Shown here one piece after another: positions 1-41,579 of a stretch of 49,907 bases of DNA. The position numbers were made by a program, and so were the translations under genes. The notes beneath the pieces were generated by a model. It was not told the origin of the DNA and did no database searches. It was given only the letters and a program-made list of their open reading frames with translations. Position 1 is the first letter of the stretch; the number at the start of each line of letters is the position of its first letter. The DNA comes from Thainema sp. (lineage in GTDB: Bacteria; Cyanobacteriota; Cyanobacteriia; Phormidesmidales; Phormidesmidaceae): contig JBQLZK010000058.1 of NCBI GenBank assembly GCA_052168235.1, forward strand, positions 1 through 49,907, given 5' to 3'.

Positions 1-155
1 ACGGTCTCAAATGAGACACCCTTGTCCCAAAACCTCAATTAATCGAGGTTCCCTATAGCGAGACAAATGCAAAAGCTGGTGCAGGTAAAGCAATCGTACA
101 AAAAGTTCCTAAGAAAACTGCTACTGAAACAAAAACTGAAATTTACCAACGCTAC

Positions 156-572
156 TTGCGAAGAAGTGGGTGGCGGTTTTGTGAGCCTTCTCTTTTATGG
201 GATATTCTCGTTGAGCTACAACGACATTTCCCAAATGGTTTTACAAGAGCTGAGGAATTTGAGTATTTAGTTGATCGTTTTGGTCAACGCCATAGTCGCT
301 CACATCTGAGAGCAACGATTTACATTTTGTATCGAATCGGTGCTGTGAGAAAGACAAAGGTACTCCTCACCACTGATATCCCTGTCTCCGAAAGAGTTTT
401 GTCAAAAAAGGTTGATGCCTTATTGATAGAGAGGCTTATTGGGATTTGCAAACTACATCAGTTAGATATAGAGGTAGATAGTATCATTCCACTGCTCACA
501 AATTCCTACACAGCATCACAGGTAGAAACTTTGCTATCTAATGCTCAACTTCAAGCAAACAACGCAACATAA
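156..572 (+). CDS. Hypothetical cassette-borne protein, probably 5'-incomplete or interrupted
   Basis: The frame is open from 15 to 572 with TGA at 12-14 and no ATG. The stop TAA lies inside the R'' box (ACATAAC) of the attC site, as is typical of cassette ORFs. Confidence 0.5.
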   Translation: MRRSGWRFCEPSLLWDILVELQRHFPNGFTRAEEFEYLVDRFGQRHSRSHLRATIYILYRIGAVRKTKVLLTTDIPVSERVLSKKVDALLIERLIGICKLHQLDIEVDSIIPLLTNSYTASQVETLLSNAQLQANNAT

Positions 573-652
573 CAACCCTAGTGCAGCGGATTGACCAAAG
601 CCACTTGGTGAGATGCAAAGACCCCGGCAACCGCTGACTAGGAACGTTAGGC
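567..652 (+). mobile_element. attC: Integron attC recombination site 1
   Basis: R'' ACATAAC (567-573) and R' GTTAGGC (646-652). L boxes CTAGTgCAGCGG / CCGCTGACTAG pair with one extra G. Length 86 bp. Confidence 0.85.
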
Positions 653-1011
653 AGTTAATTGCTCGGATAGATCTCGGTTTGAGGTGTATCTGCAGAATCT
701 ATACGCAGTTAAGCAGAGGCATTTGACTGATACAATGCACTTGACAATCCGTTGGTTGTCGGGTAAGCAGATTAAGGGCTTATCCGGAAACCCTCTCAAA
801 CTCCTAGTAAGTCGTGACCAAATTGGGGTATTCGGATAGGTTCTAAGTCCTGAAAGTTTACAGAATAACACCCAACTTCTGTTATTCGGTTTACGATTAA
901 TCCAGTAACAAAAAGCTAGAAATAGCTATGGTAGTTAGACAACGCTAAGTCCATTTCTTGAGCTATCTTCTAAATAACCAATCTCTGTACCTCTAACTAA
1001 ACAGTTCTCAA

Positions 1012-1341
1012 ATGAATCGTCTTGTTGAATACGAAATCGGTGAAGGCCAAAAGATAATTGTCGAAGTTTCTGAGCCTACTCCAGGCGGTCTAGTACCTGT
1101 GGGCCGAGGTTCTGACACAATAGTTAAGGCTCAGCGTACTCTATCTGACACTCTAGATAATATTCGTCCTGCCGCAGAGGCAATAATTGATAAGTTATCA
1201 GATTTAACAAAACGCCCTGACGAGATTGCTATTGAGTTCGGGGTGAAACTGAGTGCTAATGCAGGAGCAGTACTAGCTGCGGCTAGTGCCGAATGCAACT
1301 TTGTTATCCATTTAACATGGAAAGATAGTGATAATGAGTAA
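1012..1341 (+). CDS. Trypsin-co-occurring domain protein (Trypco1 / CU044_2847-like)
   Basis: 109 aa with the PDEIAIEFGVKLSANAGAVLAAASAECNFVIHLTW signature, directly upstream of a trypsin-domain gene. Confidence 0.85.
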   Translation: MNRLVEYEIGEGQKIIVEVSEPTPGGLVPVGRGSDTIVKAQRTLSDTLDNIRPAAEAIIDKLSDLTKRPDEIAIEFGVKLSANAGAVLAAASAECNFVIHLTWKDSDNE

Positions 1342-1461
1342 AATAAACGATGCGATGATGGATTCTAGATTTCACCAAATTTTGAAGTTCTAAATCATTA
1401 TTTTCATAAGGACTTCACTTTCAAGAAACTGATTAATGTTAATCCTACAGTCAACAGCACT

Positions 1462-4074: not shown

Positions 4075-4082
4075 AGGTTTTT

Positions 4083-4113
4083 TTCAAGAGTTATCGGGAC
4101 AGAGTACTCTTGA
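4083..4113. terminator. Stem-loop after the trypsin-NACHT gene
   Basis: TTCAAGAGT...ACTCTTGAA inverted repeat just after stop 4074, between convergent ORFs. Confidence 0.4.
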
Positions 4114-4211
4114 AACGCCTTGTGAATCGCCGTAGGCACCTGAATCGTGCGACCTGAATGACCTAAAAGAGAAAGCTGTTGTTGCCCCTGCATGAATCTA
4201 AAGAACTGCCA

Positions 4212-4454
4212 TCAAAACTGCTGCCCATCGCCTGACGCCTCAACCACCAGGACATAACTGTGAATGAGCGCTGATAAGACCACCCGTTTCGGGCCACGAG
4301 CTAATACCCCTCCACTGCCATCGAAACGCCGTAACTCGTAGACTCGCGAATCACGCGCATAGCTGAGATTGAGTAGCCCGTGGTGCGTCTGAGCAATGCC
4401 GACTTCCCCATACCGCCGTGCCGCCCTTAAATCCGCCTCAGCGGCCCTCAGCAA
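4212..4454 (-). CDS. Small hypothetical protein or gene remnant in a GC-richer patch
   Basis: 80 aa ORF with a TTG start in a segment visibly more GC-rich than its neighbours. Upstream ATGs are out of frame. Confidence 0.25.
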   Translation of the reverse strand: MLRAAEADLRAARRYGEVGIAQTHHGLLNLSYARDSRVYELRRFDGSGGVLARGPKRVVLSALIHSYVLVVEASGDGQQF

Positions 4455-4678: not shown

Positions 4679-4801
4679 TGCTTAATTCTCCAGATCAATA
4701 CTTCATTCGTTGCTTGGGGCATCTAGGTCATTTGTTGTGTGCATTGAATTTCGTTAGGTATTTGCTTAATTCTTTAAGATACTATTGAAACTAAAAGAGC
4801 T

Positions 4802-7041: not shown

Positions 7042-7682
7042 CCTTTTTAAGTTTTTCCAATTCTGCAGCAGCTACCGCTTGCAGTTAATCCTAGACGAGA
7101 CATTTCTATAATCGCCGCTTAATCGCTGCGTTCCACTTGCAAATCTTTTACAAGCTGTAAAAGATTACTTGTTTTTGTGGCTGAATTCAAAGTTCAGACA
7201 TAACATTTTTATTTTGTTTTAAGGATCTTTATTGTGTAGCTAAAAAGCGAATCGAGCTACTGATAAATTTGTCAGTCAGAACCAATCATCATTCTATAAA
7301 ACGTCTGCGATGCCTGTAGTACAAGGCTTATAAGCTGGATTTACTTGTCTCGTATTTGTATGGTCAATCAGAAAACTGGCTGTAGCTAAAGCATCAGTGG
7401 CTTATTTTTCTAACTGCGATCGCAACTTGAGCGAAAAACGGTATTGCTAATCACAAAAATATTTAAGCCGGATTTGTACTGTCAGGAGAAATTATAAAGG
7501 TCTTCGAGAGCCAGTTTGATAAAACGGCTTGGGTTTCCTCGTAGCTGTTGCAAAATCAATGCTATTTAGTCAAGAGAAACTGTCTGATTCAGCACCATTT
7601 ATTCACTCGCTCTCTGTCTAATCCAAAAGACGAACCTGCAAGAACACTCTACCCTCTTTCCGTTTTACGATGGAGATCGTCC

Positions 7683-9179: not shown

Positions 9180-12104
9180 CTAAAACGTAAGCTGCAAGCC
9201 TCCAACGACGGTGGGGCCATCGTCATCGGTCAAGAGTTCTTCAAGGCTTAGGAAGATGCCTGGCCCTGGTGTTTTACCTGTACCTACGGTTTCTGGAATG
9301 CGATCGCCGTTATCGTCATATATGAATTGATTGACGGGGACTTGGAGCAGTTCTCCATCGACCGTTTCGACTAGTTCATGCACAGCCTCTTGGTTGCGAT
9401 CGCGAACAGGTTCAGTTTGGAAAATAGGAACCAAGTTGCCGCTGATGTCGTATTCATACGCTGGTCGCTGTTCCTCTCCAAACGGATGGAAGACAACTTC
9501 AGCCCGCAATCCGATATCGTCCTGGTCATGGCATTGACCGATTGTCGTTCCCCGCACAAACAGCTCAGTCCGCAGAGTATTGGCAGCGGGTGTCCAAGGC
9601 GTATTGCCAAAGTTGAGAACAGCACCCAAAGCCAGCTCTCCTAGGAGCGGCGACAAGTTGGGATAGGTATCGGTGCCAGTTTCCACCTGGCGATTGATGA
9701 GGGTAGGCTGCCAACGGATGATCGTTCTATCAATACCGACGGTTCTATTGGCCAGAAATTCAGGATTTTGAACAATGTCAGTGCCGTCGAATTCCCTCTC
9801 CTGTTCTGTTGTTGTCTGTTCATCGATCTGAGCCGGATCAAGAACGATTTCCACATTGGAGATTAACCCATCCATGCCAACGTCAAAGGTGGCATCTCCT
9901 TCTCGTTGAATGTCTGTGATAGTCGTGTCAGTTGTTGTCGTCGTATATTGATCTAACTGAGTTCTCGGAGTTAGATAGAAATTGGTCGTGGTGGTGACTG
10001 TATGAGTTTCAACCTGTGCCTCGTAGGTAGATGAGGTGGTCGTGACAACATCTTCTTGATTGCCCAAGCCCAGGGTGAGTGAGCCTCTGACATATAGTCC
10101 ACCAGCTCGATTGGTCACATAGTAGCCTGTCTGTCCTGGATCGCCGGAAATGATTTGTTCTTCAGTCGAGAGGGCGTTGCCGACTCTGGCATCAGCGCTG
10201 GTGGGGTCTGTGAGGTCAACAGTAGCCACCCATTCCCCACCAACCTGTTCACGATAAATTCCTTGAATCCCGTTGAAGTAGGCCGTAACGGCATTGCGCC
10301 CTGGCAGCGTATCTTCTACGGCACAAACTCCGTTGGTTTCCAGCACAAAGTTTTGGGAATGATGCACAGCTGAAATCACTCTAAACCCACCATCAGCAAT
10401 CACATACTGATCCTCGTCTCCATCTGGTGCGAATTGGAGCGCATAGCTTTGGCCTAAGCTCAGATTTTGGCCCGTTTGTTGGGGCACAAGGGCATAGATC
10501 ACGCGGTTGGCTTGACCTGCTGCCAACGTAATCGGCACTGTGGCAAAGCCTTCCTGCGTCCACTGTGGCACAAACTCGGCTGTGCCATCGCTCCACTCAA
10601 TAATCAGACCACCGACGTTATCGGTATAGGCTGCATCCCCTGGCCCTACGAGTGCCGGATCAGGAGGAGTAATAATCACGCCTTGATCGGTCGGCACCTC
10701 GAAAATGCCGTTAGGAGAATCAAGGGAGACTCCAGGAATCACTTGGTCAGGGGTGGCGGGTACGTAACCAATTATATGTCTGTCATTTATCAAACCAGTG
10801 GGCTGTACGAGACGCGGCCCATCTGGATCTGGATTTGCGATGCGGTTGCCATACATATCGATCGCATTTGCGTGGGTCGAGTGGAGAAACTGCGTGATGC
10901 CCACACTGGCTGTCAGACCTGCGTTGTTATTATCGGCAAATGGGTTCAGGCGGGCGGTGCCGATCAGCAAGGTTGGAGCGGCGGCAGGATTGTTGTTGAG
11001 GGGAGGCAGTTGGCCAGTTAGGACAGCTCCCTCTGTGCCCAGCCGAACTTGAGCGGCAGCGGCGTATTGATTATAGATTAGCTGCTCTCCATTGGCCGTG
11101 CGGAGTCCAGCGGCATGGGGCAGCAAGTTGGTGTCCGTAGTCGGCACCTCAATATCACCGTAATCTCGCGTCTCTTCTACTTCAGTAAATTGCTGGCGCT
11201 CTATTACTATATCCTCAACCTGAGTGACGGTTTGGCGCTCTAGTGGGTCTAGAGGCGTTTCGACGATCTCGGTGGTGACTGTGACATCAATATTTTCGAA
11301 TTGTCCCTGTCCTAGGAGGTGGGCTTGGCCCGTACCATGATGAATTTCGAAATAGTTCCCGTCGTTGAAATCAAGATCTCCCCCATTCTGCCAGTCTTCC
11401 ACGGCTAGACTGCCATTGATATTGGCATAGATGGCAGATTCATGCTCCGTCACTGTGCCATTGGGGCCGGGTCGAAGGTTAAGCACGCGCAGTTCAACTC
11501 GGTCGCGGGCACCGTAGACGACCTCAATCGAGTCTGTGCTTGGGAGTAGGTTGCCTGCCGGATCAGACTCAACCAGATCGCCCCTGATAAAGACCCGCTG
11601 CGATTCTCGTAATGTCCCATCTGGTGCATATACGTTCACCTCAATGCCTTCACCGTAGCGATGATTGCCTAGACATCGGCAGACATTAAACCGAGTCCTC
11701 AACTGCAACGATGATTGGTTTGGCAGCCGAAAATCTTCGGGTCTCAACGGGCAAATACCCTGTTGCCCTAAGCATTCTGGGATTTGCCGCTGTAATTCTC
11801 CCTGAATATAGTTTGTATCGGCCTCAATGTTAATCGCATTGGGGGCTAATTTCCCGTCAATCACGGGTTGGGCATGGCCTTCTTGCGGATTCTCGACGGG
11901 GCCATCGGGTAGCGGAATATTCGAATCGTTTTCGAGAGGCCCGGAAAAGATATCGAAGGCATTCTGATTAATGCGAAATGCTCCGTCATCATCAACGGTG
12001 ACCTGAGCAACGGCAGGTTTGAACACATTGACGCCTAAGGCTAACAACACTACCGTTGATACTGTGCAAGCTGCCTTTAAATTAATAGGGGTGAATTTCT
12101 TCAT
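9180..12104 (-). CDS. Large secreted/surface protein of unknown function (~974 aa)
   Basis: ATG 12104 gives a signal peptide (MKKFTPINLKAACTVSTVVLLALG...AVA/Q). EDWQNGGDLDFND acidic loop, Thr-rich beta segments, C-terminal LQLTF. Confidence 0.75.
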   Translation of the reverse strand: MKKFTPINLKAACTVSTVVLLALGVNVFKPAVAQVTVDDDGAFRINQNAFDIFSGPLENDSNIPLPDGPVENPQEGHAQPVIDGKLAPNAINIEADTNYIQGELQRQIPECLGQQGICPLRPEDFRLPNQSSLQLRTRFNVCRCLGNHRYGEGIEVNVYAPDGTLRESQRVFIRGDLVESDPAGNLLPSTDSIEVVYGARDRVELRVLNLRPGPNGTVTEHESAIYANINGSLAVEDWQNGGDLDFNDGNYFEIHHGTGQAHLLGQGQFENIDVTVTTEIVETPLDPLERQTVTQVEDIVIERQQFTEVEETRDYGDIEVPTTDTNLLPHAAGLRTANGEQLIYNQYAAAAQVRLGTEGAVLTGQLPPLNNNPAAAPTLLIGTARLNPFADNNNAGLTASVGITQFLHSTHANAIDMYGNRIANPDPDGPRLVQPTGLINDRHIIGYVPATPDQVIPGVSLDSPNGIFEVPTDQGVIITPPDPALVGPGDAAYTDNVGGLIIEWSDGTAEFVPQWTQEGFATVPITLAAGQANRVIYALVPQQTGQNLSLGQSYALQFAPDGDEDQYVIADGGFRVISAVHHSQNFVLETNGVCAVEDTLPGRNAVTAYFNGIQGIYREQVGGEWVATVDLTDPTSADARVGNALSTEEQIISGDPGQTGYYVTNRAGGLYVRGSLTLGLGNQEDVVTTTSSTYEAQVETHTVTTTTNFYLTPRTQLDQYTTTTTDTTITDIQREGDATFDVGMDGLISNVEIVLDPAQIDEQTTTEQEREFDGTDIVQNPEFLANRTVGIDRTIIRWQPTLINRQVETGTDTYPNLSPLLGELALGAVLNFGNTPWTPAANTLRTELFVRGTTIGQCHDQDDIGLRAEVVFHPFGEEQRPAYEYDISGNLVPIFQTEPVRDRNQEAVHELVETVDGELLQVPVNQFIYDDNGDRIPETVGTGKTPGPGIFLSLEELLTDDDGPTVVGGLQLTF

Positions 12105-14180: not shown

Positions 14181-16379
14181 TTAATTGACATAGGTTGCTT
14201 CTTGCCAGTTGGGAATACCGAGATAGTCCCGCGCGATCGCTTGTAGTACCTTATCCTTATCGAGTACGCTGCGGTTGTGACGAGAGCCGATCGTGTAGCG
14301 CTCGTGAATCTGATCGATTTCCGCTTCCTTATCTTTCATTACTTCCCGAATAGCTGGTAGATAACTGGCTCCTACCAATACGGCCAGACTCCGAACCGAG
14401 GGAAAGGAGATACGTAGGCGCTGCTCAGAACGTTCCTGCGCCGTATTCCACTTGATGATGGCATCAATCACATCGGCAATCTTCTCCGTTGAATCGGCGC
14501 GATCGCGAATTTTCTCAGGATGAGCATCGTCCTGCTGGGCAGCCTTGTCTGCGACTGATTTTGACTGACTAGCAGCCGATTGCGCTGCTGGGGCTTTCGC
14601 GGATGTCGGTGCAGACTCTGGTGTCGTGACCTGGGGCTGCTTACCTTTTCTCACACCACCCAGTAACTCCTGGATGGCGTTGAGTTGCGATCGCGTTTCC
14701 CTTAGATCGCTCTCCAGTTTGGCATTCCGGGCTTCGAGCTGGGCATTCTGATCTTCGAGCTGAGCATTGCGCTCCTTCTCTGCAACCTTATCTGGTTCCG
14801 TATCTGCTTTCGGTTCCGATTCTGTCTGCTGAGCAACCAGACGCCTGTGCTCTTCTTCCAGAGCGCGATATTGCTGCCGGAGTGTTTCAATCTCTGACGT
14901 GAACCAGTTGATTGCCTGAGCCACCTCTCCCAGCGTTTTCGCGCCCTGCCGCGCGCCCTGTTCTGTCTGCGCTTCAAACTCTTTGACCAAAGCATGGAAA
15001 ACATCGGCTGTGCTGCCAGTGATGCCTCGGTGGGCCATCAGGTCAGTCATCTGCTCTAGGTCATCGGCATAAACATTCGCACGCTTAGTTGTGGATTTGC
15101 GAGCATCGGATTCAGTCATGTGGGGTTCGTCCTGGGGTGAGTGTTTGGTCTGGAGTGCTGTAGTCCTGTCGCGATCGCTGTTTTCGACCGCAGCAGTATC
15201 GGCAGTATCGGCAGTATCGGCATAGCTGCTATCCTCTGCGCCGTCAGTTGCGCTTTCAGTTACGACCTTAGTTACGACCTTAGTTGCGCTTTCCGCTGCA
15301 ACTTCAGTGATTGCCGCTGCCGTCGGTGGCTTGTCGGATTGCTCGGTAGGACTATTCTGAGGATGCCGGAACACCTCAATTACCTCTAGATCCGGCACCT
15401 GACCTAATTTGATGCCCAATCGACCGTCGCGGTTGCCGTCACCATTGCCAATGGCATAGTCGTCGTAATTTGAGCGGGCCGCATAGGTTGGTAGCTTTTT
15501 GCCATCTAGAGTGACCGTGAAATGTCCCTGAATTTCGGCCTTGAACTGATGTTCCGGTACAGACGGTGGACAATACCAATGGGCCGCAATGGTGGCGTAA
15601 ACCGCTCGAAACAGATGCGTATAGAGATTATCTCGGTCGCTGCGAGTCGGCACGAGATCTCGAAAACACTCGTTGCACTTGGCTGCGATCGCGCCACTGT
15701 AGAGCTGATTCACCCTCAGCTTTGCTTGTCGAGACGACATTCCCTGGAGTCGGAGCTGATTCACTTTTAGACCCGTTTGCAAACGCTCGATCGCAGCCAG
15801 AACTACTCGGGCAGGTGCCAGCGTCGGAATCTCAATCGTGATATCCAGAGTGTCTGGCTTCTTTGCCATTTTGCTGAACATCAGACTCCAGGGCGATTTC
15901 AGCGAGAACGTGGAGAGCAGGATTTCACTAATCCGCCGACCGATGAGTACCGCCAATCCGGCTCCAATTTCCGCACACTCTGTACTCGTGATCAACTGGC
16001 TGGCTCGCTTGACGATTGACTCTGCCGCCTCACTGGTAATAAATCGAGTCTGCCGATCGGCCATTCGTTCCCGCTGTTGGTCATTCAGCATTCGATACTG
16101 TGCCGTTGAAAGGCCAACCAAATCGATAGCCGGATGGTCGGGGTCAAACACCTTAATTGCCTGAACCACGTTGGAGCGGTAGTTTTTTTGCTGGGCTGGG
16201 GTATTGAGCTTGCGGGATGCGAATTCTTCTTCCAACTCACTCGCCAACGCCTCCGGCGTTATCCGCTCAGCCTGTAGCTGGGCCACATAGTAGCGGATAA
16301 ACTGCCTCAGCCACTTGGTTGAGCCGCAGCTTTCAGCTGCAGAGAGCCAGTTTTCAGCCAATGGTTGTGTCGTTGGCAT
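14181..16379 (-). CDS. Protelomerase / telomere resolvase family protein with a C-terminal coiled coil
   Basis: Catalytic motifs in the expected order: IGRRISEIL (R), MAKK (K), HLFRAVYA (R..Y), IQGH (H), NYDDY (Tyr nucleophile). A low-complexity linker and coiled coil follow. Confidence 0.88.
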   Translation of the reverse strand: MPTTQPLAENWLSAAESCGSTKWLRQFIRYYVAQLQAERITPEALASELEEEFASRKLNTPAQQKNYRSNVVQAIKVFDPDHPAIDLVGLSTAQYRMLNDQQRERMADRQTRFITSEAAESIVKRASQLITSTECAEIGAGLAVLIGRRISEILLSTFSLKSPWSLMFSKMAKKPDTLDITIEIPTLAPARVVLAAIERLQTGLKVNQLRLQGMSSRQAKLRVNQLYSGAIAAKCNECFRDLVPTRSDRDNLYTHLFRAVYATIAAHWYCPPSVPEHQFKAEIQGHFTVTLDGKKLPTYAARSNYDDYAIGNGDGNRDGRLGIKLGQVPDLEVIEVFRHPQNSPTEQSDKPPTAAAITEVAAESATKVVTKVVTESATDGAEDSSYADTADTADTAAVENSDRDRTTALQTKHSPQDEPHMTESDARKSTTKRANVYADDLEQMTDLMAHRGITGSTADVFHALVKEFEAQTEQGARQGAKTLGEVAQAINWFTSEIETLRQQYRALEEEHRRLVAQQTESEPKADTEPDKVAEKERNAQLEDQNAQLEARNAKLESDLRETRSQLNAIQELLGGVRKGKQPQVTTPESAPTSAKAPAAQSAASQSKSVADKAAQQDDAHPEKIRDRADSTEKIADVIDAIIKWNTAQERSEQRLRISFPSVRSLAVLVGASYLPAIREVMKDKEAEIDQIHERYTIGSRHNRSVLDKDKVLQAIARDYLGIPNWQEATYVN

Positions 16380-30263: not shown

Positions 30264-31661
30264 TTACGATTTCAGGCTTTTGAACCGCTCTTTAGCAGCC
30301 TTAAAGGCATCATCCATGACGGCTTGAATGCGCTGCGGGTCGGGCTTTTTGCCACCCATCAGATCACCAAAGTAAACGCAGGTTGCTTCACCTAAGGCCC
30401 ATGTATACGCCGCTGCCCACGATGCCGCAATAAAACTGCCGAATCCAGGAATAAATTTAACCAGCTCCCGCCCAACCGCTTGTGCCACGAAACCACCGGC
30501 TATGGCGCTAACCAGTCCGCCTGCTTGTGCGGTCGATATTGGCTGGTGATACAACCGCGCCAGTAGACCCACCATCGATACCTGGAGGGCTGTCAGTACG
30601 GGCATCGTAGCAAACGGCAGCGGAACTGCCGCTAAGGTTGCTGCCGCTGTCGAAAAGGCAAGGAGATAGCGACGGCCAACGTCTCGGTATAAATCGCCGA
30701 GTTGCTGTCCGGCAGAATCGTTGAGCAACTGGTGGATGGTACGGGCTTCGGCTTCGGGTAGCAGATCGGCCAGGGTATCCCGTAGTGCATCCAGACCATA
30801 GAAGGTGGGGGTGTAGTCGTCTTCTTCCAAGGTGAAGTCGATGAGGACGCTGCGATCGCACAAGGCTTCAAAGCTGTCCTGTAGAGCGGCGGCAGCTCGA
30901 ACGACGGCTTCGGTTGGGGGTGGGTAGGCGGGATGATTATCGGTGGGGTGGGGGTAGAGTTCGTGCAGACAGGTAATTACTAGAAGGCAAGGTAAGCTGG
31001 GATAGCGATCGCGCAATTGTTGGGCGGTTTGACGTAAGGTATCGATCGCAAAGTCGTTGATCTTGACGGTTAGGATCAGGATGCGAGCCCGCGCTGTGTC
31101 TTGTTCGAGATCTGCAACTAAGTCGTCGATGATCGCTTGTGTCTCTTGGTTCACATCTCCAAGTCCTACCGTGTCGGTAAAGATGAGCAGCGGCAGGTCT
31201 TCATTTGGGTAAGAGTAGCGTTCTGTATGCTGGGTATGGGGCCGAAATCCTTGTCCGACGATGTCTGCCGAAACGCCCGTTAAACCTCGCACAATGGAAC
31301 TTTTGCCGGATTGCGGTTTGCCAATCAGGAGGGCTTCGGTTGTGGGCAGTTGCGCTCTGACGGCCTCTAGAATTTCGGCAACTTCTGTTTCGCTGACCCT
31401 AAACCAGCGGCTCATCTGATCCGGCAGCGAGGGCAGGCCAGGCAGTGAGGGCAAGCTGGGCAGCGAAGGTAGATCAGGGAGATGTTGGGTCAGACGCTGG
31501 GTGGTTTCATTCCAGGCAGTACTCAGTCGCCCAAACCAAGAGGAACGCTCGTTCGCCTGGGTTTCCTCAACGGCGGATTCGGGCTCGGATGGGGCTAATT
31601 CAGAGTCAGGGAGCTTATCTGCTGGGGATTTTGGGGGAGTGGGTTCAGGCAAGTTAGTCAT
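30264..31661 (-). CDS. YcjF/DUF697-family protein with an Era-like GTPase domain
   Basis: GKPQSGKSS and DTVG motifs. C-terminal AVPLPFATMPVLTALQ...KFIPGFG helices. N-terminal LPS repeats. Confidence 0.85.
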   Translation of the reverse strand: MTNLPEPTPPKSPADKLPDSELAPSEPESAVEETQANERSSWFGRLSTAWNETTQRLTQHLPDLPSLPSLPSLPGLPSLPDQMSRWFRVSETEVAEILEAVRAQLPTTEALLIGKPQSGKSSIVRGLTGVSADIVGQGFRPHTQHTERYSYPNEDLPLLIFTDTVGLGDVNQETQAIIDDLVADLEQDTARARILILTVKINDFAIDTLRQTAQQLRDRYPSLPCLLVITCLHELYPHPTDNHPAYPPPTEAVVRAAAALQDSFEALCDRSVLIDFTLEEDDYTPTFYGLDALRDTLADLLPEAEARTIHQLLNDSAGQQLGDLYRDVGRRYLLAFSTAAATLAAVPLPFATMPVLTALQVSMVGLLARLYHQPISTAQAGGLVSAIAGGFVAQAVGRELVKFIPGFGSFIAASWAAAYTWALGEATCVYFGDLMGGKKPDPQRIQAVMDDAFKAAKERFKSLKS

Positions 31662-31739
31662 ATCTCGCTCATCATCGAGATCTCTTCTTTACTCTATCTC
31701 ACTCTCCTCCATCCGCTTTGCCGATAATTATGCCGATGG

Positions 31740-32675
31740 CTATGGATTACAGTGCCCGCATTGGCCCGGATCGGCAAACTCAATGCCTTGGGGAAACAAG
31801 CGATCTGCTTGGAAGCGGCAGTGCTGGCAGCGGTAGGTTTCTGCTTTGACCAGCTGGGTCGGCAGATGACACCACTGGCAGGGCAGCCCCCGCTTCTGCT
31901 CGACTACATCAAAACCGGGATAGCTACAGCTCGGGCAGGTCGATTGAATCTTGGTGATCAAATTTTGCGTCGCCTGTTCAATCACCTGCATCCGCATCGG
32001 GTTGCACATAGCCCGCATATCGGTTTCCAGATGCACGCTACCGTCACGCGACTGCTGTAGCAGGCGTTCTACCACCTGACAGAGCTGAGTTGTCGTTTGA
32101 ATTCCCTTATAGATCTGGTTGCGATCGCAGTTGTCCCGGCTGGGCATGACCACCAAAGCGTGTTCAGGAAAGCCCACCTGTTCTGCAAATGCGATCGCAG
32201 CTTCAACGCTGTGGATAGATCTGTGAGCAAAATTGGTCTGGTTGGAGAGTTCGCTGCCAATTACTTCCAGATCGTGCTCGATGTCTAGCAGCAGCACAAT
32301 CTCGCGATTACAGGCAATGCCCGGAAACACCGGATGGGGAAAGAACGACCCCTCACTGGCTACAGCGACGGTCTCTCCCGTCAGCGCCAGAGCCTGTTTC
32401 GCTTTTTGCCGTGCCGCTTCAATCTGGCTACCCGCTCGGGGAATGTCCCGCGTGAATGTGCCCAGCGCATCAGTATCGAAGTTAGCGGGCACCACCAGGT
32501 GCAGCCCAAGCTGCTGGCGAAACAGCGGCGCTATCACCTGTTCTTTGCGATGCATCGTCGCCAGCACAGCCCGCGACTGATCGGCCCAGAACGGCAGGCG
32601 TTCGCTGGAGCTAGAGGATGTAGCTCCAGCAGAAGAAATCATAGGTGAAGTCATAGAAGAAGTCATAGCAGTCAA
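31740..32675 (-). CDS. DUF6671 family protein with C-terminal Cys clusters
   Basis: LATMHRKE, DALGTFT, ASEGSFFPHP, ETDMRA..NPMRM, and four CxxC pairs. Confidence 0.82.
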   Translation of the reverse strand: MTAMTSSMTSPMISSAGATSSSSSERLPFWADQSRAVLATMHRKEQVIAPLFRQQLGLHLVVPANFDTDALGTFTRDIPRAGSQIEAARQKAKQALALTGETVAVASEGSFFPHPVFPGIACNREIVLLLDIEHDLEVIGSELSNQTNFAHRSIHSVEAAIAFAEQVGFPEHALVVMPSRDNCDRNQIYKGIQTTTQLCQVVERLLQQSRDGSVHLETDMRAMCNPMRMQVIEQATQNLITKIQSTCPSCSYPGFDVVEQKRGLPCQWCHLPTQLVKAETYRCQHCRFQADRLFPQGIEFADPGQCGHCNP

Positions 32676-35212: not shown

Positions 35213-35764
35213 TCAGTCTGGAATGGTGACGAGCGGATCAACTGCGATCGCAACTTCGGGAAATGCGACAGGATGAATAACACCATCTTTAACAGTGATC
35301 TGAGTTGAAAAATCACCATTTTGCAAGTCTCTGAACACGGTCAGTTGCCGTCCGGCGATGTCAATCACCCAATATTCCTGGATGCCAGCCTGAGCATAGA
35401 GCTGGCGTTTAGTATTCAAGTCGTAAGTTAGGGTCGTGTCCGCTACCTCAACGAGCCAATAGATCTCGTCTGGATAGGGGTGATGTTTCAAGTAGCGAGT
35501 ATCGGGCAGGCGGACGATGGCGATGTCGGGTTGGGGTTCAGATTTTACCAGCGTGATGGGATGGGCTTCAAACACTTTTGCTTTACTTTGAAGAATACGT
35601 CTAAGGTATTCAGCCCCCCGATCGTTAATGAACCGATGAAATTCTCCTTCTGGAGCCATGTCCCAAATCTCTCCACGAATGAGTTCGCAGCGGCGGCGAT
35701 CCAGAATGCCCAGATCCCGCATACGGTGATAGTCTGCCACTGACCATTTTGTGAGTGTCCGCAT
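35213..35764 (-). CDS. Uma2 family endonuclease
   Basis: WSVADYHRM, SEPQPD, VEVADTTL.YD..K..LYA.AGI.EYWVID. Confidence 0.92.
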   Translation of the reverse strand: MRTLTKWSVADYHRMRDLGILDRRRCELIRGEIWDMAPEGEFHRFINDRGAEYLRRILQSKAKVFEAHPITLVKSEPQPDIAIVRLPDTRYLKHHPYPDEIYWLVEVADTTLTYDLNTKRQLYAQAGIQEYWVIDIAGRQLTVFRDLQNGDFSTQITVKDGVIHPVAFPEVAIAVDPLVTIPD

Positions 35765-36111
35765 GACGTGAACCTGCTGATGTTAGTCTGACATTTGCTC
35801 ATATCCTACTTCAAACGCGATCGCAGCTATGGAGTGGATGAGTTAAGTGCGATCGCGCACAAGGCATGGTCATGAAAAAAATCTGCCACAGAAATGAGGA
35901 AGCTATGGCTCACTCAAAGCACTAAGGAACTTAAGGTAAAGTGCATTTCCGGATTGTATCTGGGCACTCTGTATGAAGAGCTAATAGGCGATTCCTGTCC
36001 TGGCAAAAATTAATAGATGTAAAAGCTGTGCAGCTCAAAACTGCCAGTCTTCAGACTGATGGCTAAACTAGCCTAGAAGCTCATATCTGTAACCCCCAGC
36101 CTCCAGCCCTT

Positions 36112-38310
36112 ATGCAAAGAACTGAGCAAATCAGCTCCATCCTGAATCAGCGTCGGCCTCTAGCCCAACAAATCCAGACTGTAGAGACTAACTTACAGAA
36201 CCTGGCTGCTGTACTCCATCATCTGGATGAACATCGATACAACCTCATCACCAAGTTGGAAGACGCTTCTGCTTGCGGTTCCCTTCGAGAAATTGACTTT
36301 ACCGTTATACAAAAGGAAATTCAGCAGGAAATTCAAGCTCTAGACAAGCTAAAGGTTCGATTTTCTCGCAATACCTTAAACATTGGAGTTGTCGGTAGAG
36401 CAAGGCAAGGGAAAAGCCGATTGCTTCAAAGTCTGACTGGTTTAAGCTCCTCGGAAATTCCAGATGGTGACCGCCAGCATTGTACAGGAGTACGAAGTAC
36501 CATTCATCACAACCCTGATGTCGAACCTTACGGAGATGTCTGGTTCTATACAGAATTTTCCTTTTTAGAGGAAGTGATAGCTCCCTACTATGAAAAGCTA
36601 AGGCTTGGGGCAAAACCTATCAATTTAGAAACCTTTGCGCGGCAATCACTTCCGCCACTCCCCGAGGATCTCAAAGGTCGAGCTGTAGAAGGGGCAATGT
36701 ATGAGCATCTGAAAAAATATCACACAAATTTTGACAAATATAGCTCCTTACTCAAACAACCCTCTCCACAAAGAATTACTCAAGAGCAAATCAGAGAATA
36801 TGTAGCCCAAGACACAAACGATGGACAACGCACTTACTTTAACTACTTAGCCGTTCGGGAAGTCAAAATCACCTGTAGCTTTCCCAATCAGGATGTTGGA
36901 CAAATTGCTCTTGTAGACATGCCTGGTTTAGGGGATACAGGTATTGGAGATACTGAACGATTGGTAAAAACCCTTGGACAAGATGTTGATGTCGTTTTGT
37001 TTGTCCGCATGCCCAAACCATCGGGAGACTACTGGGCAGATTACGACGTCAATCTTTACGATACGGCCCAAGGTGCTTTGCTTGATTTACCGATTAACTT
37101 ATGGTCTTTTCTGGTGTTGAACCGCACTGCAATGGGTTCAAAATATGGCGATAACTGGCAAAACTGCTTAGAGTTAAAGGAAAGCCTGAAAGAAAAACAC
37201 ATCGATGTTGCAGGACAGCTCATCACCAATTGCTCTGATATTCAAGAGACAGGATCGCTACTTGATCTGATTCTCAACTATATGGCTAATGAAATTCATA
37301 CGTTGGATCGTAAGTACGCTTCTGCATGCCAGAATCGACTGCTTGATCTTCATCGTTCGGTTGAGATTGAGTTAGCTGAAGCTCGAACCGCTCTAGGCGA
37401 AGTAGGTTATGGCGAAGATTGGTTCCCTTTATTCTTGCAACTTTTCGAAAAACTTTGGGATGAATTAGCTTCAGGACTAGATGATCTGCTCGATGAGCTT
37501 AGGGAGCAAAAAGATTTTCCAGATATGGACTTCAAGCAGAAAGTAGATGAAGCCCTTAATGCTGGTAAGCAAGATACAGGTCTTCCATCAATAGAAGAGA
37601 TTGATACTAAGGCCAAAGCATTAGGAGGCTATCCAAATGCTTACTATGCCTATATGAATGAAGTTCGTGCTCATTTATCCCAACATTTTCTACTTGTCGA
37701 TGAAGCCCTGAAGCGTGGCCTAGAGCGAGTCAAGTCTCAGGTTGCAGAGGTTTTAGCACATCAAGGGAAATTGAGTAACCTCTCCGAAGAAGATGGAAGT
37801 AGCTTTTTAGAGGCTATCTCTGAACAAATTCCACAGCAACTTGTTCCCAATCAGCCTAGCAGGCTGAAAAATGGGTTTCAGATTCTTTCAGACTTCACAC
37901 TATCTTACCGAGGTTTAATCCAACACCGCATTCGTCAACATTTGGATGATCTGACACCTAACACAACAGAACTTCAGCTTTCACCATCTCCTACGGCTGA
38001 GGAAGTTGAAAGCTGTCTTAGAACTCTTCATTCAGAGGCATTGTATAAGTGCCGTACTGCTTTAGATGACTTACTTGCTGAACCCAGTCAGGCGGCATTT
38101 GCAATCGTAGAAGAATTTTGCGATCGCGTACTCCGTGCTGAAGGAGTAAAGATGGAATGGCAGATCTTTCTACAATCTGTCAGATCTGAAGTCTGGAGTG
38201 ATCATTTCCGGGCTTTGGATGAGAAGACGCGAACTCGAACAGAATGGCTCGATACCATTCAACAAGTTTCAGAAATAAACAAGTTTGAAAATTTACGTTT
38301 TTTGAATTAA
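36112..38310 (+). CDS. Dynamin-like large GTPase
   Basis: N-terminal coiled coil, G1 GRARQGKS, G2 CT, G3 DMPG, G4-like LNRT, long helical C-terminal region. Confidence 0.82.
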   Translation: MQRTEQISSILNQRRPLAQQIQTVETNLQNLAAVLHHLDEHRYNLITKLEDASACGSLREIDFTVIQKEIQQEIQALDKLKVRFSRNTLNIGVVGRARQGKSRLLQSLTGLSSSEIPDGDRQHCTGVRSTIHHNPDVEPYGDVWFYTEFSFLEEVIAPYYEKLRLGAKPINLETFARQSLPPLPEDLKGRAVEGAMYEHLKKYHTNFDKYSSLLKQPSPQRITQEQIREYVAQDTNDGQRTYFNYLAVREVKITCSFPNQDVGQIALVDMPGLGDTGIGDTERLVKTLGQDVDVVLFVRMPKPSGDYWADYDVNLYDTAQGALLDLPINLWSFLVLNRTAMGSKYGDNWQNCLELKESLKEKHIDVAGQLITNCSDIQETGSLLDLILNYMANEIHTLDRKYASACQNRLLDLHRSVEIELAEARTALGEVGYGEDWFPLFLQLFEKLWDELASGLDDLLDELREQKDFPDMDFKQKVDEALNAGKQDTGLPSIEEIDTKAKALGGYPNAYYAYMNEVRAHLSQHFLLVDEALKRGLERVKSQVAEVLAHQGKLSNLSEEDGSSFLEAISEQIPQQLVPNQPSRLKNGFQILSDFTLSYRGLIQHRIRQHLDDLTPNTTELQLSPSPTAEEVESCLRTLHSEALYKCRTALDDLLAEPSQAAFAIVEEFCDRVLRAEGVKMEWQIFLQSVRSEVWSDHFRALDEKTRTRTEWLDTIQQVSEINKFENLRFLN

Positions 38311-38328
38311 GGCTGTGGGGAACATCTA

Positions 38329-39312
38329 ATGCATGAACTTCAAATCACTATGCTTGGGCCAAGTGGTGTTGGTAAAACCACTCTTTTAACTGCTATGTAT
38401 GAGCAATTCGAGAGTAATATTGGCAGCGTTGATTTACAACTCACTCCTGATGAGGACAGTTCAGCAATTTTACAAGATACATTAATCGACTTAAAAAGCC
38501 TTCTGGACTCGTTTGAAGTTAAAGGTGGAGTTCTAAGTACTGAAGCTCCTGCAGGACCAGATTCTTTAAGATCATTTACCTTTGGTCTTGGGAAAAAAGG
38601 AAAAAAGCCATCTTTAACCTTAACATTTAGAGACTATCCAGGAATTTATCACACTAAAATGGCAACAACGGATGAAAAAAGGTTTTTGAGGGACTTGATT
38701 GTTGACTCTCATGTGATATTGATTGCAATAGACACACCATCACTCATGGAACAGAATGGGAAATATCATGAAAAAATAAATAGACCACAGCAAATCAAAG
38801 ATTTATTTAAAAATGCTTATTCAAAGAGCGATGACAATGAACCTAAAATGGTTATTTTTGCGCCTGTTAAATGCGAAAAATATCTAAAGAAGAACCTCAA
38901 CGCTGAGCTTGAAGACGCCGTCAAGAAAGGTTATCAAGACCTATTTGAATACTTTAGATCTGATGGTTTATCGAATTGGACAAGCTGCGTCTTAACTCCT
39001 GTTCAAACTGTAGGCAATGTTGTTCTTTCACGAATAGAACCTGATGAAAATGGTGTACTACATTTTTCTTTCCGAAAAACTCGCTACGATGCAACATACG
39101 ATCCAAAAGATAGTGAGCAACCACTAAGATATTTGCTTCGGTTTCTTCTTAAAATACATCTTGACTCTAGAAAGTGGAGTAAATTTAATTTTGTTAGAGA
39201 TTGGCTAAAAATGGATAGGCATCTTGAAAAAGCAGTTGATGAATTTTCAAGAGGATGTAAAACAGGTGATGGTTTTACCATACTTCAAGGTGAAAGCTGG
39301 TTGAAAATTTAG
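38329..39312 (+). CDS. TRAFAC-class P-loop GTPase
   Basis: G1 GPSGVGKT, G3 DYPG, IAIDTP, G4-like VKCE. Starts 18 nt after the dynamin-like gene. Confidence 0.82.
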   Translation: MHELQITMLGPSGVGKTTLLTAMYEQFESNIGSVDLQLTPDEDSSAILQDTLIDLKSLLDSFEVKGGVLSTEAPAGPDSLRSFTFGLGKKGKKPSLTLTFRDYPGIYHTKMATTDEKRFLRDLIVDSHVILIAIDTPSLMEQNGKYHEKINRPQQIKDLFKNAYSKSDDNEPKMVIFAPVKCEKYLKKNLNAELEDAVKKGYQDLFEYFRSDGLSNWTSCVLTPVQTVGNVVLSRIEPDENGVLHFSFRKTRYDATYDPKDSEQPLRYLLRFLLKIHLDSRKWSKFNFVRDWLKMDRHLEKAVDEFSRGCKTGDGFTILQGESWLKI

Positions 39313-39322
39313 TTAATAAGGA

Positions 39323-40240
39323 TTGGCACAAATGTCTTCTATTACTAATATTCATGTTCAATCCAGAGGGTATCAGCAAGAAAATGATTATCGGTGGGTA
39401 AAAGTAAATCAACAAGGCGATCCTAGATTTGAAATGCCTTTTTTTATAGATTCTCATAACAATCTTAATTTATTAGACTTTATTGAAACTCAGCGTCCTT
39501 CAGTAATTCTTGCTCATCAAGGAAACTATTTCTTTCTCCTAGTTACAGCGTTGGAAGCTGATTCTACCAGACTAGATTGGGCTAATCGTCCAATAAGAAA
39601 CTCGATTGCATGGACATTTGAACAAGATGAGGAGGGAGTAAATGAGAAAAAAATTAGGGCAATTACAATTTTGGCTTTACAGAACAAGCTGAGTACAAAA
39701 ATACATCAAATGATTTTGAATGATGATAGTAAAGACTACGGATTTCGAGTGAATTTTTCTTCTTTAAATACTATTGGCAATTCCTATAGAGAACTAAAAG
39801 ACTTAGATCCGAATCTAAAAAGATGGATCAGCGGAGACTCTGAGGATACTCGGCAGAAACTATGTGATGAGCTTAGGACTAGCAGGTTACCGCAGCAAAA
39901 CGGCTTGCTAATTTTGGTTACCACTCTTAAAAATAAAGATTTTTTGCGTCAAGTTCCAGTATGGAGAGGAATATCTTGTCGATCAGATGAAGACATAGAG
40001 TGGTTAGAGAATAACGAACCTGAACAAGTAGCTTTCTCTCAAAAAAAAACAGAATTCTCGAAAAAAGGAATCTTTCTCGCTTTACTCCTTATCCTGTTAC
40101 TGAGCATCATACTTCTGACAGGATTATATCTAAAACCAATTCTCCTGAGACCGATCGAGGAGATACCAAATCAACAGGAAGATACAACACAAATCCAAGT
40201 GGAAGAAATCAAGACAATGGAACAGATCAATCCTCTTTAA
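39323..40240 (+). CDS. GTPase-associated protein with a C-terminal transmembrane anchor (0-frame product)
   Basis: Tightly linked third gene (TTG 39323 or ATG 39332). KK is followed by GIFLALLLILLLSIILLTGLYL. Confidence 0.75.
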   Translation: MAQMSSITNIHVQSRGYQQENDYRWVKVNQQGDPRFEMPFFIDSHNNLNLLDFIETQRPSVILAHQGNYFFLLVTALEADSTRLDWANRPIRNSIAWTFEQDEEGVNEKKIRAITILALQNKLSTKIHQMILNDDSKDYGFRVNFSSLNTIGNSYRELKDLDPNLKRWISGDSEDTRQKLCDELRTSRLPQQNGLLILVTTLKNKDFLRQVPVWRGISCRSDEDIEWLENNEPEQVAFSQKKTEFSKKGIFLALLLILLLSIILLTGLYLKPILLRPIEEIPNQQEDTTQIQVEEIKTMEQINPL

Positions 40241-40416
40241 TTGGTCAAATAAAAGATAGGATGTTATCTACTCCTGGTGCTTTGAGAGAATTCTACCCGT
40301 TGGCACAGGAAATAGTTGGACGAGCTTTAGGCGAGGTATCTAATAAGATAGAAGTAGATCCAGATTTTGAGCGCAGATTTCGAGAATTCTTGGATTTTAT
40401 AAATGAGAATCTTTAG
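40041..40416 (+). other. A9 slippery tract and overlapping -1 reading frame (alternative C-terminus)
   Basis: Nine As at 40041-40049, phased A_AAA_AAA. The -1 frame is open from 40024 (after TGA 40021) to TAG 40414-40416, with no ATG until 40261. Confidence 0.65.
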
Positions 40417-40568
40417 ACTAATTCGTAGTTAGTATAGCCACATCTCAAAACTAGGCAACGATACCGCTATTCTGCCACGCGCTTCCCTTGAGAGTTTCCG
40501 AAAGGATAGCTTTCCTCTGTCGTTCAAAATGAGATCGCAACTGAGACTGACATGCAGAGAGAATGTGA

Positions 40569-41204
40569 TCATTGCTCTAAAACCTTTTGCCCCACCACCT
40601 TGAGAATCTGAGCCACTTGCCCCAGTTCATGCCGCTGCGGAAATAGCGAAAACGAACGAGACGTATCGTATTCCCGTTCAGCACTCAGTTTCAGAAAGAC
40701 AAACTCATCCCCATTTGTCGCCATGCCATAGTTAGGATGCTGTCGGTTAGGATTGGCTGCCATATACGCCAGCAGTTGCGGCAACGCCGCCGGAACCGAA
40801 ATGCTGGTTCGCTTAGACTCAACCGTCAAAATCCAAAGATGCTCTTGCACCACCAATACATCAATGAATCCCCGGATCGTTTCCTCCGGGTCTTGCAGTT
40901 CTACAGCAACTCCATGAGGCGACTTGATGCGAAAAGGAGGATCAACAAAACCCAAAAGCTCCAGCAGCGGAGCAGTCATTACCAGATTAATTGCGGTGCC
41001 CTCTAGCAGCAACCCATCAGCACGGTGATAATCGTAACGCTGTTTGATGCGTTCAACACTCGCTGCTTCCTGAGCCGTCAAAGACGGTAGATCACCCGTC
41101 CATTCAGAGAAGAACTCAGGATTACGAGATTGCACAAGTCCCAAGCGCTGGTGCAAATCATTTAGTGTGGTGATTACATCTCTAACGCCAGCGCTGCCTA
41201 CCAT
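40569..41204 (-). CDS. Restriction-endonuclease-like protein (type I HsdR N-terminal-like PD-(D/E)xK family)
   Basis: GFIDVLVV...VESKR...QLLAYM...GMATNGDEFVF. Confidence 0.82.
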   Translation of the reverse strand: MVGSAGVRDVITTLNDLHQRLGLVQSRNPEFFSEWTGDLPSLTAQEAASVERIKQRYDYHRADGLLLEGTAINLVMTAPLLELLGFVDPPFRIKSPHGVAVELQDPEETIRGFIDVLVVQEHLWILTVESKRTSISVPAALPQLLAYMAANPNRQHPNYGMATNGDEFVFLKLSAEREYDTSRSFSLFPQRHELGQVAQILKVVGQKVLEQ

Positions 41205-41288: not shown

Positions 41289-41579
41289 TTATCCCCCTCA
41301 TCCCCCAACCCCTTCTCCCACAAGGGGCGAAGGGGAGCCAAAAAATCAAACTCAATTCTCAAAGTCCCTCTCCCGCTCTGGGCTGCTGTTTATACACAAA
41401 TCTTTTGGACTTCGCTTCGACGCTTAGATCCCCCCTAGCCCCCCTTAAAAAGGGGGGAATTGGCTCAAAGTTCCCCCTTTTTAAGGGGGATTTAGGGGGA
41501 TCGATCCGGGATTTAGAAGAACCATTCAGATGTGTGTAAGCAGTAGCCCGCTCTGGGAGAGGGATTTAGGATGAGGGCT
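41289..41579. mobile_element. Nested miniature elements: a 164-bp insert (41383-41546) inside a REP-like palindromic repeat
   Basis: 11-bp direct repeat CCCGCTCTGGG at 41372-41382 and 41547-41557. Imperfect TIRs CTGCTGTTTATACACA / TGTGTGTAAGCAGTAG. Internal CCCCCTTAAAAAGGGGG hairpins. Confidence 0.8.

Follow-up and report, generated by a model that had tools for sequence, protein, structure and literature searches.

The locus and its closest described relatives

Bacterial dynamin-like proteins are widespread, but little is known of what targets and activates them; to our knowledge, most known cases are dynamin pairs. We analyzed a 49,907-nt stretch of DNA from the cyanobacterium Thainema sp. 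(contig JBQLZK010000058.1 of assembly GCA_052168235.1; hereafter the window), which carries a cassette of three genes, g1, g2, and g3, where a dynamin-like protein is hard-wired to a small GTPase and to a predicted membrane anchor resembling a GTPase regulator. These genes form a genuine trio that is both conserved and mobile and that, within the reach of our searches, is undescribed as a unit; it is made of known kinds of parts together with a new protein family (g3), and it probably acts on membranes.

The operon-paired bacterial dynamins offer one comparison: Nostoc bacterial dynamin-like protein (BDLP), Campylobacter DLP1/DLP2, LeoA/LeoBC (= Eleos) of enterotoxigenic Escherichia coli, Bacillus subtilis DynA, and mycobacterial IniA/IniC. 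According to the sections considered here of one report (10.1101/2022.05.11.491447), both DynA, which keeps the membrane intact, and a two-dynamin Leo-like operon give protection against phages. The predicted fold of g1 is that of these proteins, and g1 likewise shares its operon with another GTPase and would be expected to work at a membrane. In contrast, g2 is a 327-aa GTPase of the DO-GTPase2 type and not a dynamin, and g1 has no membrane segment, the anchor being a separate protein.

A second comparison is the “HSR1 clade”, for which the sections considered of Jilly et al. (2018; PMC5827413) describe dynamin-like genes of cyanobacteria with a small GTP-binding gene downstream, in six members (Cyanothece 7424 and 7822, an Anabaena sp. 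90 plasmid, Trichodesmium, and two Microcystis). The order of g1 and g2 is the same, and g2 has a sub-threshold match to MMR_HSR1 (19.9 bits vs. a cut-off of 21.9); in contrast, none of these six taxa is among the 80 cassette loci presented below, and those sections describe no third gene, the comparison being one of descriptions and locus tags only. A g2 search of a plasmid collection gave no match to the Anabaena sp. 90 plasmid, whose inclusion in that collection was unchecked. Most cyanobacterial BDLPs are described in the same sections as having an extended P-loop, GKS/T-x-L/I-N-A-L-L/I, whereas g1 reads GKS-R-L-L-Q-S-L.

The third comparison is with the DO-GTPase/GAP1 conflict systems of Kaur et al. 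(2020; PMC7159879). In the sections considered, these comprise DO-GTPases, which often come in pairs and have zinc ribbons, a GAP1 protein with N, M, and C domains, either GASH or FNIII as a further component, and effectors that vary. The systems are called “nearly completely absent in cyanobacteria”, and dynamin is never mentioned there. N2-type GAP1 is said often to end in a transmembrane (TM) helix, sometimes followed by cadherin domains.

The cassette genes of the window are:

36112..38310, forward strand: g1, bacterial dynamin-like protein, 732 aa
38329..39312, forward strand: g2, TRAFAC-type GTPase of the Pfam DO-GTPase2 family, 327 aa
39323..40240, forward strand: g3, predicted single-pass membrane protein, 305 aa with a TTG start, 302 aa with the ATG at 39332 as start

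Spacing is 18 nt between g1 and g2 and 10 nt between g2 and g3 (19 nt from the g3 ATG, the 302-aa form being the version present in the protein collection). GC content is 0.398 in the cassette (g1 0.431, g2 0.360, g3 0.359) vs. 0.502 in the remaining window. The window has 55 HIP1 sites (shuffle mean 1.0), only one of which, at 38120, lies between 35857 and 41959, the last upstream site being at 35849-35856. At the window density of 1.10 per kb, about 4.7 sites would be expected in the 4.3-kb region (Poisson P(≤1) of about 0.05) and about 6.7 in the 6.1-kb gap (Poisson P of about 0.01). A sequence-only reading of this region had reported genes for a dynamin-like GTPase, for another P-loop GTPase, and for an unknown protein, spaced by 10-20 nt, in AT-rich DNA with one HIP1 site near 38120 and flanked by Uma2 and HsdR-like genes, and had been unable to assign the whole to a named system. 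Pfam and fold comparisons agree with the three identities, the third protein being a membrane protein; spacing, composition, and the Pfam matches of the flanks are as it described, and likewise we found no matching named system and no paper describing the trio as a unit, as far as our searches reach.

Conservation of the trio

A g2 profile scan of one genome per species (185,579 species genomes) returned 116 relatives, from which 80 loci were kept. By blastp of the locus open reading frames (ORFs), g2 is present in 80/80, g3 in 76/80, and g1 in 74/80, always in the order g1-g2-g3 and on a single strand. Four of the six loci lacking g1 are contig ends, and the other two (L035 and L037) truly have g2-g3 alone; two of the four loci lacking g3 are also contig ends, and L079 has a truncated g2. 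The median g1-g2 gap is 18 nt (≤60 nt in 53 of 68 loci) and the median g2-g3 gap is about 3 nt (≤60 nt in 63 of 71 loci). Among the 80 loci there is no conserved fourth gene; the commonest flank cluster, Uma2 paralogs, occurs in 13, and the other shared flanks are each confined to one lineage.

Median pairwise identity in the 56 complete loci is 58% for g1, 59% for g2, and 38% for g3, the fastest-evolving of the three, and the identities of the three genes co-vary over 1540 pairs (Spearman rank correlation = 0.50-0.60). The three genes are inherited and transferred together, and the arrangement extends to at least 116 species-level genomes and hundreds of protein clusters. Chance adjacency, or a g3 that is not a real gene, is scarcely credible and was rejected: order and strand are kept in 74-80 of 80 loci despite very different flanks, the g3 family comprises 283 clusters at E ≤ 1e-30, and the g3 structure model is confident (pLDDT 86.8).

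Variant arrangements were also observed. In a Bacillota-labelled metagenome-assembled genome (MAG; L073, 1239..7601), the g2-g3 pair is duplicated in tandem (g1-g2-g3-g2'-g3'); g3' (428 aa), like the g3 homologues of L074, L075, and L077, is without a TM helix and differs in its C-terminal part. In the Laspinema/Oscillatoria/Phormidium lineage (L035, L047, L050, L052, L054, and L055, at about 7100-7830), an ORF of about 160 aa resembling a P-loop kinase (Pfam AAA_33, E = 2.3e-17) lies between g1 and g2 or, in L035 without g1, upstream of g2. Where g3 is absent from L038, an HSDR_N-like gene (9195..9800) directly follows g2; it matches the PADLOC PD_DExK model (E = 5e-52), which is also matched by the downstream flank gene of the window (40569..41204).

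The three proteins

By predicted fold, g1 is a bacterial dynamin-like protein. Its Pfam Dynamin_N match is borderline (27.8 bits vs. a gathering cut-off of 27, residues 91-298), and many of its homologues (873 clusters) carry a precomputed PF00350 label. Long N-terminal helices (3-85) are followed by a G domain (about 89-372) with the P-loop G92-x4-G100-K101-S102, and by a helical neck and trunk (377-728). The AlphaFold2 (AF2) model (pLDDT 86.9) gave 109 Foldseek matches to the PDB at E ≤ 1e-3, among them BDLP (2j69, E = 1.8e-12), SynDLP (7zw6, E = 6.9e-12), IniA (E = 6.4e-11), DLP1/2 (E = 2.7e-10), and Fzo1/mitofusin, while a sequence profile search of the PDB gave P-loop or chance matches only. 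There is no TM or hydrophobic segment in g1 (maximum 19-residue hydropathy 1.21). A conserved amphipathic, basic stretch at about 586-608, with invariant G588, F595, Y599, R600, and Q604-R608, could be a membrane paddle. Two other assignments were considered and rejected: for g1 a phage origin, as it has no match in the phage collection, and for the cassette the Leo/Eleos dynamin pair, for which the LeoBC match is insignificant (E = 0.006, 13.7 bits) and g2 is not a dynamin.

Sequence comparison places g2 in the Pfam DO-GTPase2 family of GTPases (31.1 bits vs. a cut-off of 27). Its homologues form 558 clusters, most with a precomputed PF19993 label, and its nearest Atlas clusters are DO-GTPase2; a sequence search of the PDB gave P-loop matches only. 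The motifs are a P-loop, G10-x4-G15-K16-T17, and a Walker B/switch II, D102-Y-P-G105 (DxxG).

From its sequence, g3 is a predicted single-pass membrane protein of a large unannotated family. It has no Pfam family at E ≤ 1, no NCBIfam match above noise, no PADLOC family, and only chance matches in a sequence profile search of the PDB. A profile search among 1.84 billion representatives returned 601 clusters at E ≤ 1e-3, of which the 283 mentioned above reach E ≤ 1e-30; a word-index search found 8 clusters only, an apparent rarity that locus blastp and the profile search identify as a sensitivity artefact. Its conserved cytoplasmic domain extends over about 225 aa up to a VWRG(L/I)S motif and is followed by a variable linker, a TM helix (about 250-270), and a short acidic outer tail, and D82, R86, and R212 are invariant across 57 sequences. 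Hydropathy peaks at 3.09 near residue 250, and a TM-type segment is present in 65 of 74 homologues; among the proteins g1-g3, only g3 has one. The tail beyond the helix ranges from 0 to 455 residues in the family, and this outer part includes a WD40 beta-propeller in 8 of 149 members, while 1 of 57 has an Ig-like domain. A sizeable unannotated protein family is thereby defined.

Lineages differ further in this outer part, which is swapped between them (alignment A4; L068, L071, L076, and L078): relatives from Okeania/Dapis have Ig-like (He_PIG or Rib) repeats beyond the TM helix, and relatives from Pleurocapsales have a Cys-containing motif of about 60 aa.

In the g3 AF2 model, strands 4-11, 21-25, 57-63, 66-75, and 89-97 and helices 103-116 and 120-127 precede an alpha/beta unit, an order of predicted elements that fits a longin domain plus an alpha/beta domain. 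The best Foldseek match, obtained with the whole model including TM helix and tail, is a weak one to TagF (9t0n, E = 1.5e-3, probability 0.89), and further weak matches are to GATOR1, FLCN-FNIP, DENND10, SEDL, VAMP7, Lst4, and a Lokiarchaeal roadblock-longin protein. The best structural neighbors of the g3 model belong to one group, that of TagF and the longin/roadblock/DENN platforms for small GTPases, of which MglB-MglA, FLCN-FNIP, GATOR1, and the DENN guanine nucleotide exchange factors are examples. According to the sections considered of PMC3521125, longin/roadblock domains are recurrent docking modules of small GTPases, and MglB is a bacterial GTPase-activating protein (GAP) for MglA. 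Unlike an established member, g3 matches these proteins weakly (E from 1.5e-3 to 0.3) and shares no sequence similarity with them, and the longin helix alpha-1 is apparently replaced by a variable loop (26-56). Since TM-scores are low (≤0.25), we treat the longin/DENN likeness as a lead on the fold and not as a family assignment.

Comparison with DO-GTPase/GAP1 conflict systems

The cassette resembles the DO-GTPase/GAP1 systems in several respects. A GTPase of the DO-GTPase2 family has a constant partner directly downstream; this partner has a globular N-terminal part and a C-terminal TM helix, sometimes with Ig-like outer repeats; and the cassette, like those systems, probably acts near the membrane, both occurring mostly in multicellular or colonial bacteria. 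It differs in that it has a dynamin-like protein and has no GAP1-N/M/C match and no FNIII, GASH, zinc ribbons, paired DO-GTPases, or effectors, and in that it is mainly cyanobacterial. It therefore extends the DO-GTPase family into a phylum where, in the sections of PMC7159879 considered, such systems are reported to be nearly absent. We found no publication linking a DO-GTPase with dynamin.

GAP1 was sought at several levels. Pfam GAP1 has no match in g3 (E ≤ 1), in 57 aligned homologues (E ≤ 0.01), or in six divergent or noncyanobacterial g3 relatives and the unrelated third gene of a Stanieria plasmid variant (E ≤ 1). It is also absent from the 25 families listed for 149 g3 members, each of which matched at least six of those members, so that a family matching fewer could go unseen. 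Of the profiles that the sequence-only reading had named, then, Dynamin_N is found in g1 and DO-GTPase in g2 (as DO-GTPase2), while GAP1 did not turn up in g3. FNIII and GASH were not seen among 135 neighboring ORFs, and the cassette has no zinc ribbon, second DO-GTPase, or effector domain. The passage of PMC7159879 that gives a conserved glutamate in the GTPase Walker B motif as a criterion leaves its position unspecified; the invariant g2 columns near Walker B are F100, D102, Y103, G105, Y107, and H108, with no invariant Glu around the motif, and invariant glutamates occur elsewhere (E141 and E183). Because GAP1, FNIII, GASH, and effector domains are all missing, the cassette is not a canonical DO-GTPase/GAP1 system, the GTPase being the only defining feature that it shares.

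It is nevertheless conceivable, and in our judgment unlikely, that g2-g3 is a DO-GTPase/GAP1 pair that has diverged very far, in a branch of those systems from cyanobacteria and actinobacteria, with g1 in place of the variable effectors. The g2 score lies above the DO-GTPase2 cut-off, and that of the homologue in the actinobacterium Nonomuraea reaches 43.4 bits; g3 sits directly downstream of the GTPase, as GAP1 does; and g3 together with the Okeania/Dapis relatives with Ig-like repeats shares the layout of N2-type GAP1 as described in the sections considered, a TM helix with outer domains. An Atlas feature search with g3 residues 1-232 also ranked at positions 9, 14, 20, and 26 (scores 0.78-0.82) clusters in which 16-37% of members carry GAP1-N2, GAP1-N1, or GAP1-M, which are leads only. 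This is set against the negative Pfam GAP1 searches, the missing partners and effectors, and the reported near-absence of such systems from cyanobacteria with dynamin unmentioned in those sections.

Mobility and distribution

Positions 35891-40417 of the window are 82% identical by blastn to 318-4845 of another locus, L001 (about 4.5 kb), and the flanks beyond are unrelated. L001 overall has a GC content of 0.403 and no HIP1 site, a composition expected for a donor. A strong AT shift between cassette and flanks is also seen in L002 (0.433 vs. 0.570), L003 (0.399 vs. 0.548), and L059 (0.383 vs. 0.557). The sequence-only reading had held that the genes were acquired horizontally as a system; the GC shift and the shared block in unrelated flanks support this for the window copy, and the order and strand conserved over 80 loci show that the trio is kept together across genomes. 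The cassette itself is old and has spread widely among cyanobacteria, and the window appears to have received its copy recently.

Full-trio relatives occur on a Nostoc carneum plasmid and on an 11.85-Mb record of Nonomuraea gerenzanensis filed as “plasmid I”, and hhalign relates their third genes to the g3 family with probabilities of 99.7 and 98.9, respectively. A relative on an Aulosira plasmid rests on g1 and g2 matches only, and a Streptomyces plasmid has the same layout with a marginal third-gene match (probability 59%). Among the loci, L073-L077 are on contigs without HIP1 and with MAG labels outside cyanobacteria, and L037 (g2-g3 only) is on a Myxococcota-labelled contig with a GC content of 0.70 and 2 HIP1 sites, while L021, which has a Chloroflexaceae label and 22 HIP1 sites, is probably cyanobacterial DNA that was binned wrongly. 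Two copies each are present in three assemblies (L029/L053, L032/L080, and L027/L067).

At larger distance the third component varies, as on the Stanieria cyanosphaera plasmid pSTA7437.02 (L084, 4995..11384), where the gene for a g1-like dynamin family protein is followed first by that of a 389-aa protein, whose matches to DO-GTPase1 and DO-GTPase2 (24.8 and 22 bits) stay sub-threshold, and then by that of an unrelated 992-aa protein without a family; upstream of this variant system is an NB-ARC gene. On the Pseudanabaena galeata plasmid pPg_02 (L086, 4986..8353), a g1 homologue (52% identity) is annotated as two separate pieces about 1.2 kb apart, in surroundings with toxin-antitoxin genes (PemK/MazF, ParD, and PIN-like) and an HNH gene.

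Genomic context

The two nearest ORFs on each side were surveyed in 34 dereplicated loci (135 ORFs), without a background control. PADLOC models matched 21 of the 135 at E ≤ 1e-10. Seven of these matches are generic (methyltransferases, ArsR-type helix-turn-helix, cNMP-binding domain, GlgB, and desaturase), six are Uma2-like candidate families (in five loci), and eight, in six loci, are more specific: PD-DExK, IetA-like, HEAT-ARM/WD40, ZorD/DpdE-like, AbiEii, AbiEi, MkoA-like, and WYL. A defense-type neighbor is thus present in 11 of 34 loci, five of which have Uma2-like neighbors only, leaving 6 of 34. Uma2 genes are abundant in cyanobacterial genomes generally, and their paralogs are the commonest flank cluster of the cassette, for which reason Uma2 flanks are weak evidence for defense. 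The Leo-like dynamin pair is reported to adjoin defense systems in 60% of cases (10.1101/2022.05.11.491447, sections considered).

A proposed membrane-anchored switch coupled to a dynamin-like protein

We assign a probability of roughly 45% to the reading that the cassette is a mobile, self-contained operon in which a membrane-anchored GTPase switch is coupled to a dynamin-like mechanoenzyme, g3 anchoring and regulating g2, and g2 directing g1 to remodel or seal membrane. The topology of g3 would be N-in/C-out, given the four lysines before its helix and the acidic tail after it as read from the sequence. Its cytoplasmic domain, with its longin/DENN and TagF-like resemblance, would dock g2 and control its nucleotide state, with D82, R86, and R212 as candidates for contact or catalysis. 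In FLCN and NPRL2, GAP catalysis involves an arginine finger of the longin domain, and TagF represses type VI secretion. Docking and regulation of g2 by g3 are suggested because g2-g3 persist without g1 (L035 and L037) and are duplicated in tandem (L073), which supports g2-g3 as a pair, and because the fold neighbors of g3 are GTPase platforms. GTP-bound g2 would then recruit, release, or license g1, itself without an anchor, for the tethering, fusion, or sealing of membrane, and the variable outer tail of g3 may be a sensor of envelope damage or of an external cue.

The occasion for such a response could be a membrane insult or conflict, for example phage lysis or pore formers, as reported for DynA. 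We favor this role over routine membrane biogenesis because the cassette is accessory, patchy, sometimes plasmid-borne, and sometimes multi-copy. If a protective role is true, the cassette adds a system whose effector is a membrane remodeller and not a nuclease or toxin. In any case the breadth of conservation makes the recruitment-and-switch model directly testable.

Several observations weigh against this reading. In 65 loci with enough flank, the median difference in GC content between cassette and flanks is -0.013, and HIP1 density is 0.83 per kb in the cassette vs. 0.97 in the flanks; these near-native values imply that most copies are long resident. By Pfam, the neighboring ORFs are mostly housekeeping genes (Hsp33, RuvA/B, PGK, GcpE, PNPase, and RimM). 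There is no effector or toxin domain in g1-g4 (g4 being a small ORF downstream of g3), and PADLOC found nothing significant in the cassette, the LeoBC match covering residues 19-123 of g1 only. Conservation of g1 and g2 across cyanobacterial orders (58-59%) is more typical of physiological function than of an arms race. For g3, Foldseek gave no match to the PDB at E ≤ 1e-3 (TM-scores 0.16-0.25), and binding and regulation among g1, g2, and g3 are predictions.

These observations bear on a physiological alternative, in which the same anchor-switch-dynamin logic has no conflict role and the cassette is a membrane-dynamics module that serves to maintain thylakoids or the cytoplasmic membrane, in septation, or at cell-cell junctions, in large cyanobacteria of which most are filamentous or colonial. 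Beyond the conservation of g1 and g2 in 56 loci, the native composition in most genomes, and the lack of an effector domain, the cassette is stable among housekeeping genes within lineages (in Laspinema/Oscillatoria, for example, with GcpE, S41 peptidase, and aminotransferase), and a role in thylakoid dynamics has been proposed for cyanobacterial dynamin-like proteins in the sections considered of PMC5827413. We nevertheless regard this alternative as less probable than the main reading, given a patchy distribution (116 relatives in 185,579 species genomes), copies on plasmids and in noncyanobacteria, several divergent copies in some assemblies, clear recent transfer in several lineages, and a fast-evolving g3 with interchangeable outer domains.

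A defense role for the cassette is plausible. The case for it consists of patchiness and mobility, multiple copies, a fast g3 with swappable outer domains, and the family of g2; the case against it consists of the missing effector domain, of g1 and g2 being well conserved, and of contexts that are mostly native and housekeeping. The sequence-only reading had called the region a candidate defense or conflict system, a claim that our searches do not sustain: PADLOC is not significant, no effector domain is present, neighbors are mostly housekeeping, and composition is native in most genomes. Its view of gene 3 as the adaptor or variable component stands in part. The protein is the fastest-evolving of the three (38%) and has a variable tail, but it is a constant member (76/80) with a conserved N-terminal domain.

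A fuller synthesis, which we consider rather improbable, would join these lines into a prokaryotic version of small GTPase, longin/DENN regulator, and dynamin logic: anchored g3 would set the state of g2, g2 would deploy g1 to a defined membrane site, and the whole would be a mobile, self-contained defense or repair unit that senses through the interchangeable outer domain of g3. It would at the same time be a new DO-GTPase conflict branch with a mechanoenzyme replacing the toxin.

Borders of the cassette and other features of the window

The cassette is bordered in the window by the following features:

35213..35764, reverse strand: Uma2 gene, upstream flank (Pfam E = 6.9e-31)
35891..36111, no strand: upstream non-coding stretch travelling with the cassette, at the start of the 82%-identity blastn block shared with L001
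40261..40416, forward strand: g4, a 51-aa ORF 20 nt downstream of g3, function unassigned
40569..41204, reverse strand: HSDR_N/PD-(D/E)xK-like gene, downstream flank, just sub-threshold (23.7 bits vs. a cut-off of 25.1)

The upstream stretch (35891..36111) is probably the promoter and 5' leader of the cassette; no promoter-like site in it passed the scan, the frequency of such sites being no higher than in shuffles, and no Rfam family matched there or elsewhere in the cassette region. The site scan found no terminator-like site at the cassette, the tRNA scan found none, and no direct or inverted repeats resembling element ends flank it. The right end of the studied region, 40416, is the stop codon of g4 and not of g3, which ends at 40240. 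By tblastn, g4 directly follows g3 in L001 (61%), L002 (49%), and L080 (41%), with no match of meaningful E in the other 77 loci and no Pfam family; it falls within the block common to the window and L001 and is restricted to the sub-clade of the window copy.

The HSDR_N-like flank gene has no HIP1 site and lies in a stretch with a GC content of 0.44. In the intergenic DNA beyond it, 75 nt (41427..41501) are 87% identical to 11364-11438 of L029 (a Scytonema MAG) on the opposite strand, and this element may be a short dispersed repeat. About 4 kb upstream of the cassette, a GTPase gene (465 aa, MMR_HSR1 + DUF697) adjoins a DUF6671 gene (30264..32675, reverse strand); as far as checked, this GTPase has no relation to g1 or g2. 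Farther upstream, a 732-aa ORF (14181..16379, reverse strand) has a ResT/TelK telomere-resolvase catalytic domain (Pfam E = 9e-28, 97.5 bits) in otherwise ordinary, chromosomal-looking surroundings; for a cyanobacterium, a gene of this protelomerase-like kind is a hint of a linear replicon or of a prophage remnant. A second low-GC island (0.37-0.41), with zero HIP1 sites, occupies positions 1..4400 and carries an 870-aa ORF (1462..4074, forward strand) with an N-terminal trypsin-like peptidase domain, and a 283-aa trypsin-like, zinc-ribbon ORF lies just 3' of the cassette in L001 (5035..5886).

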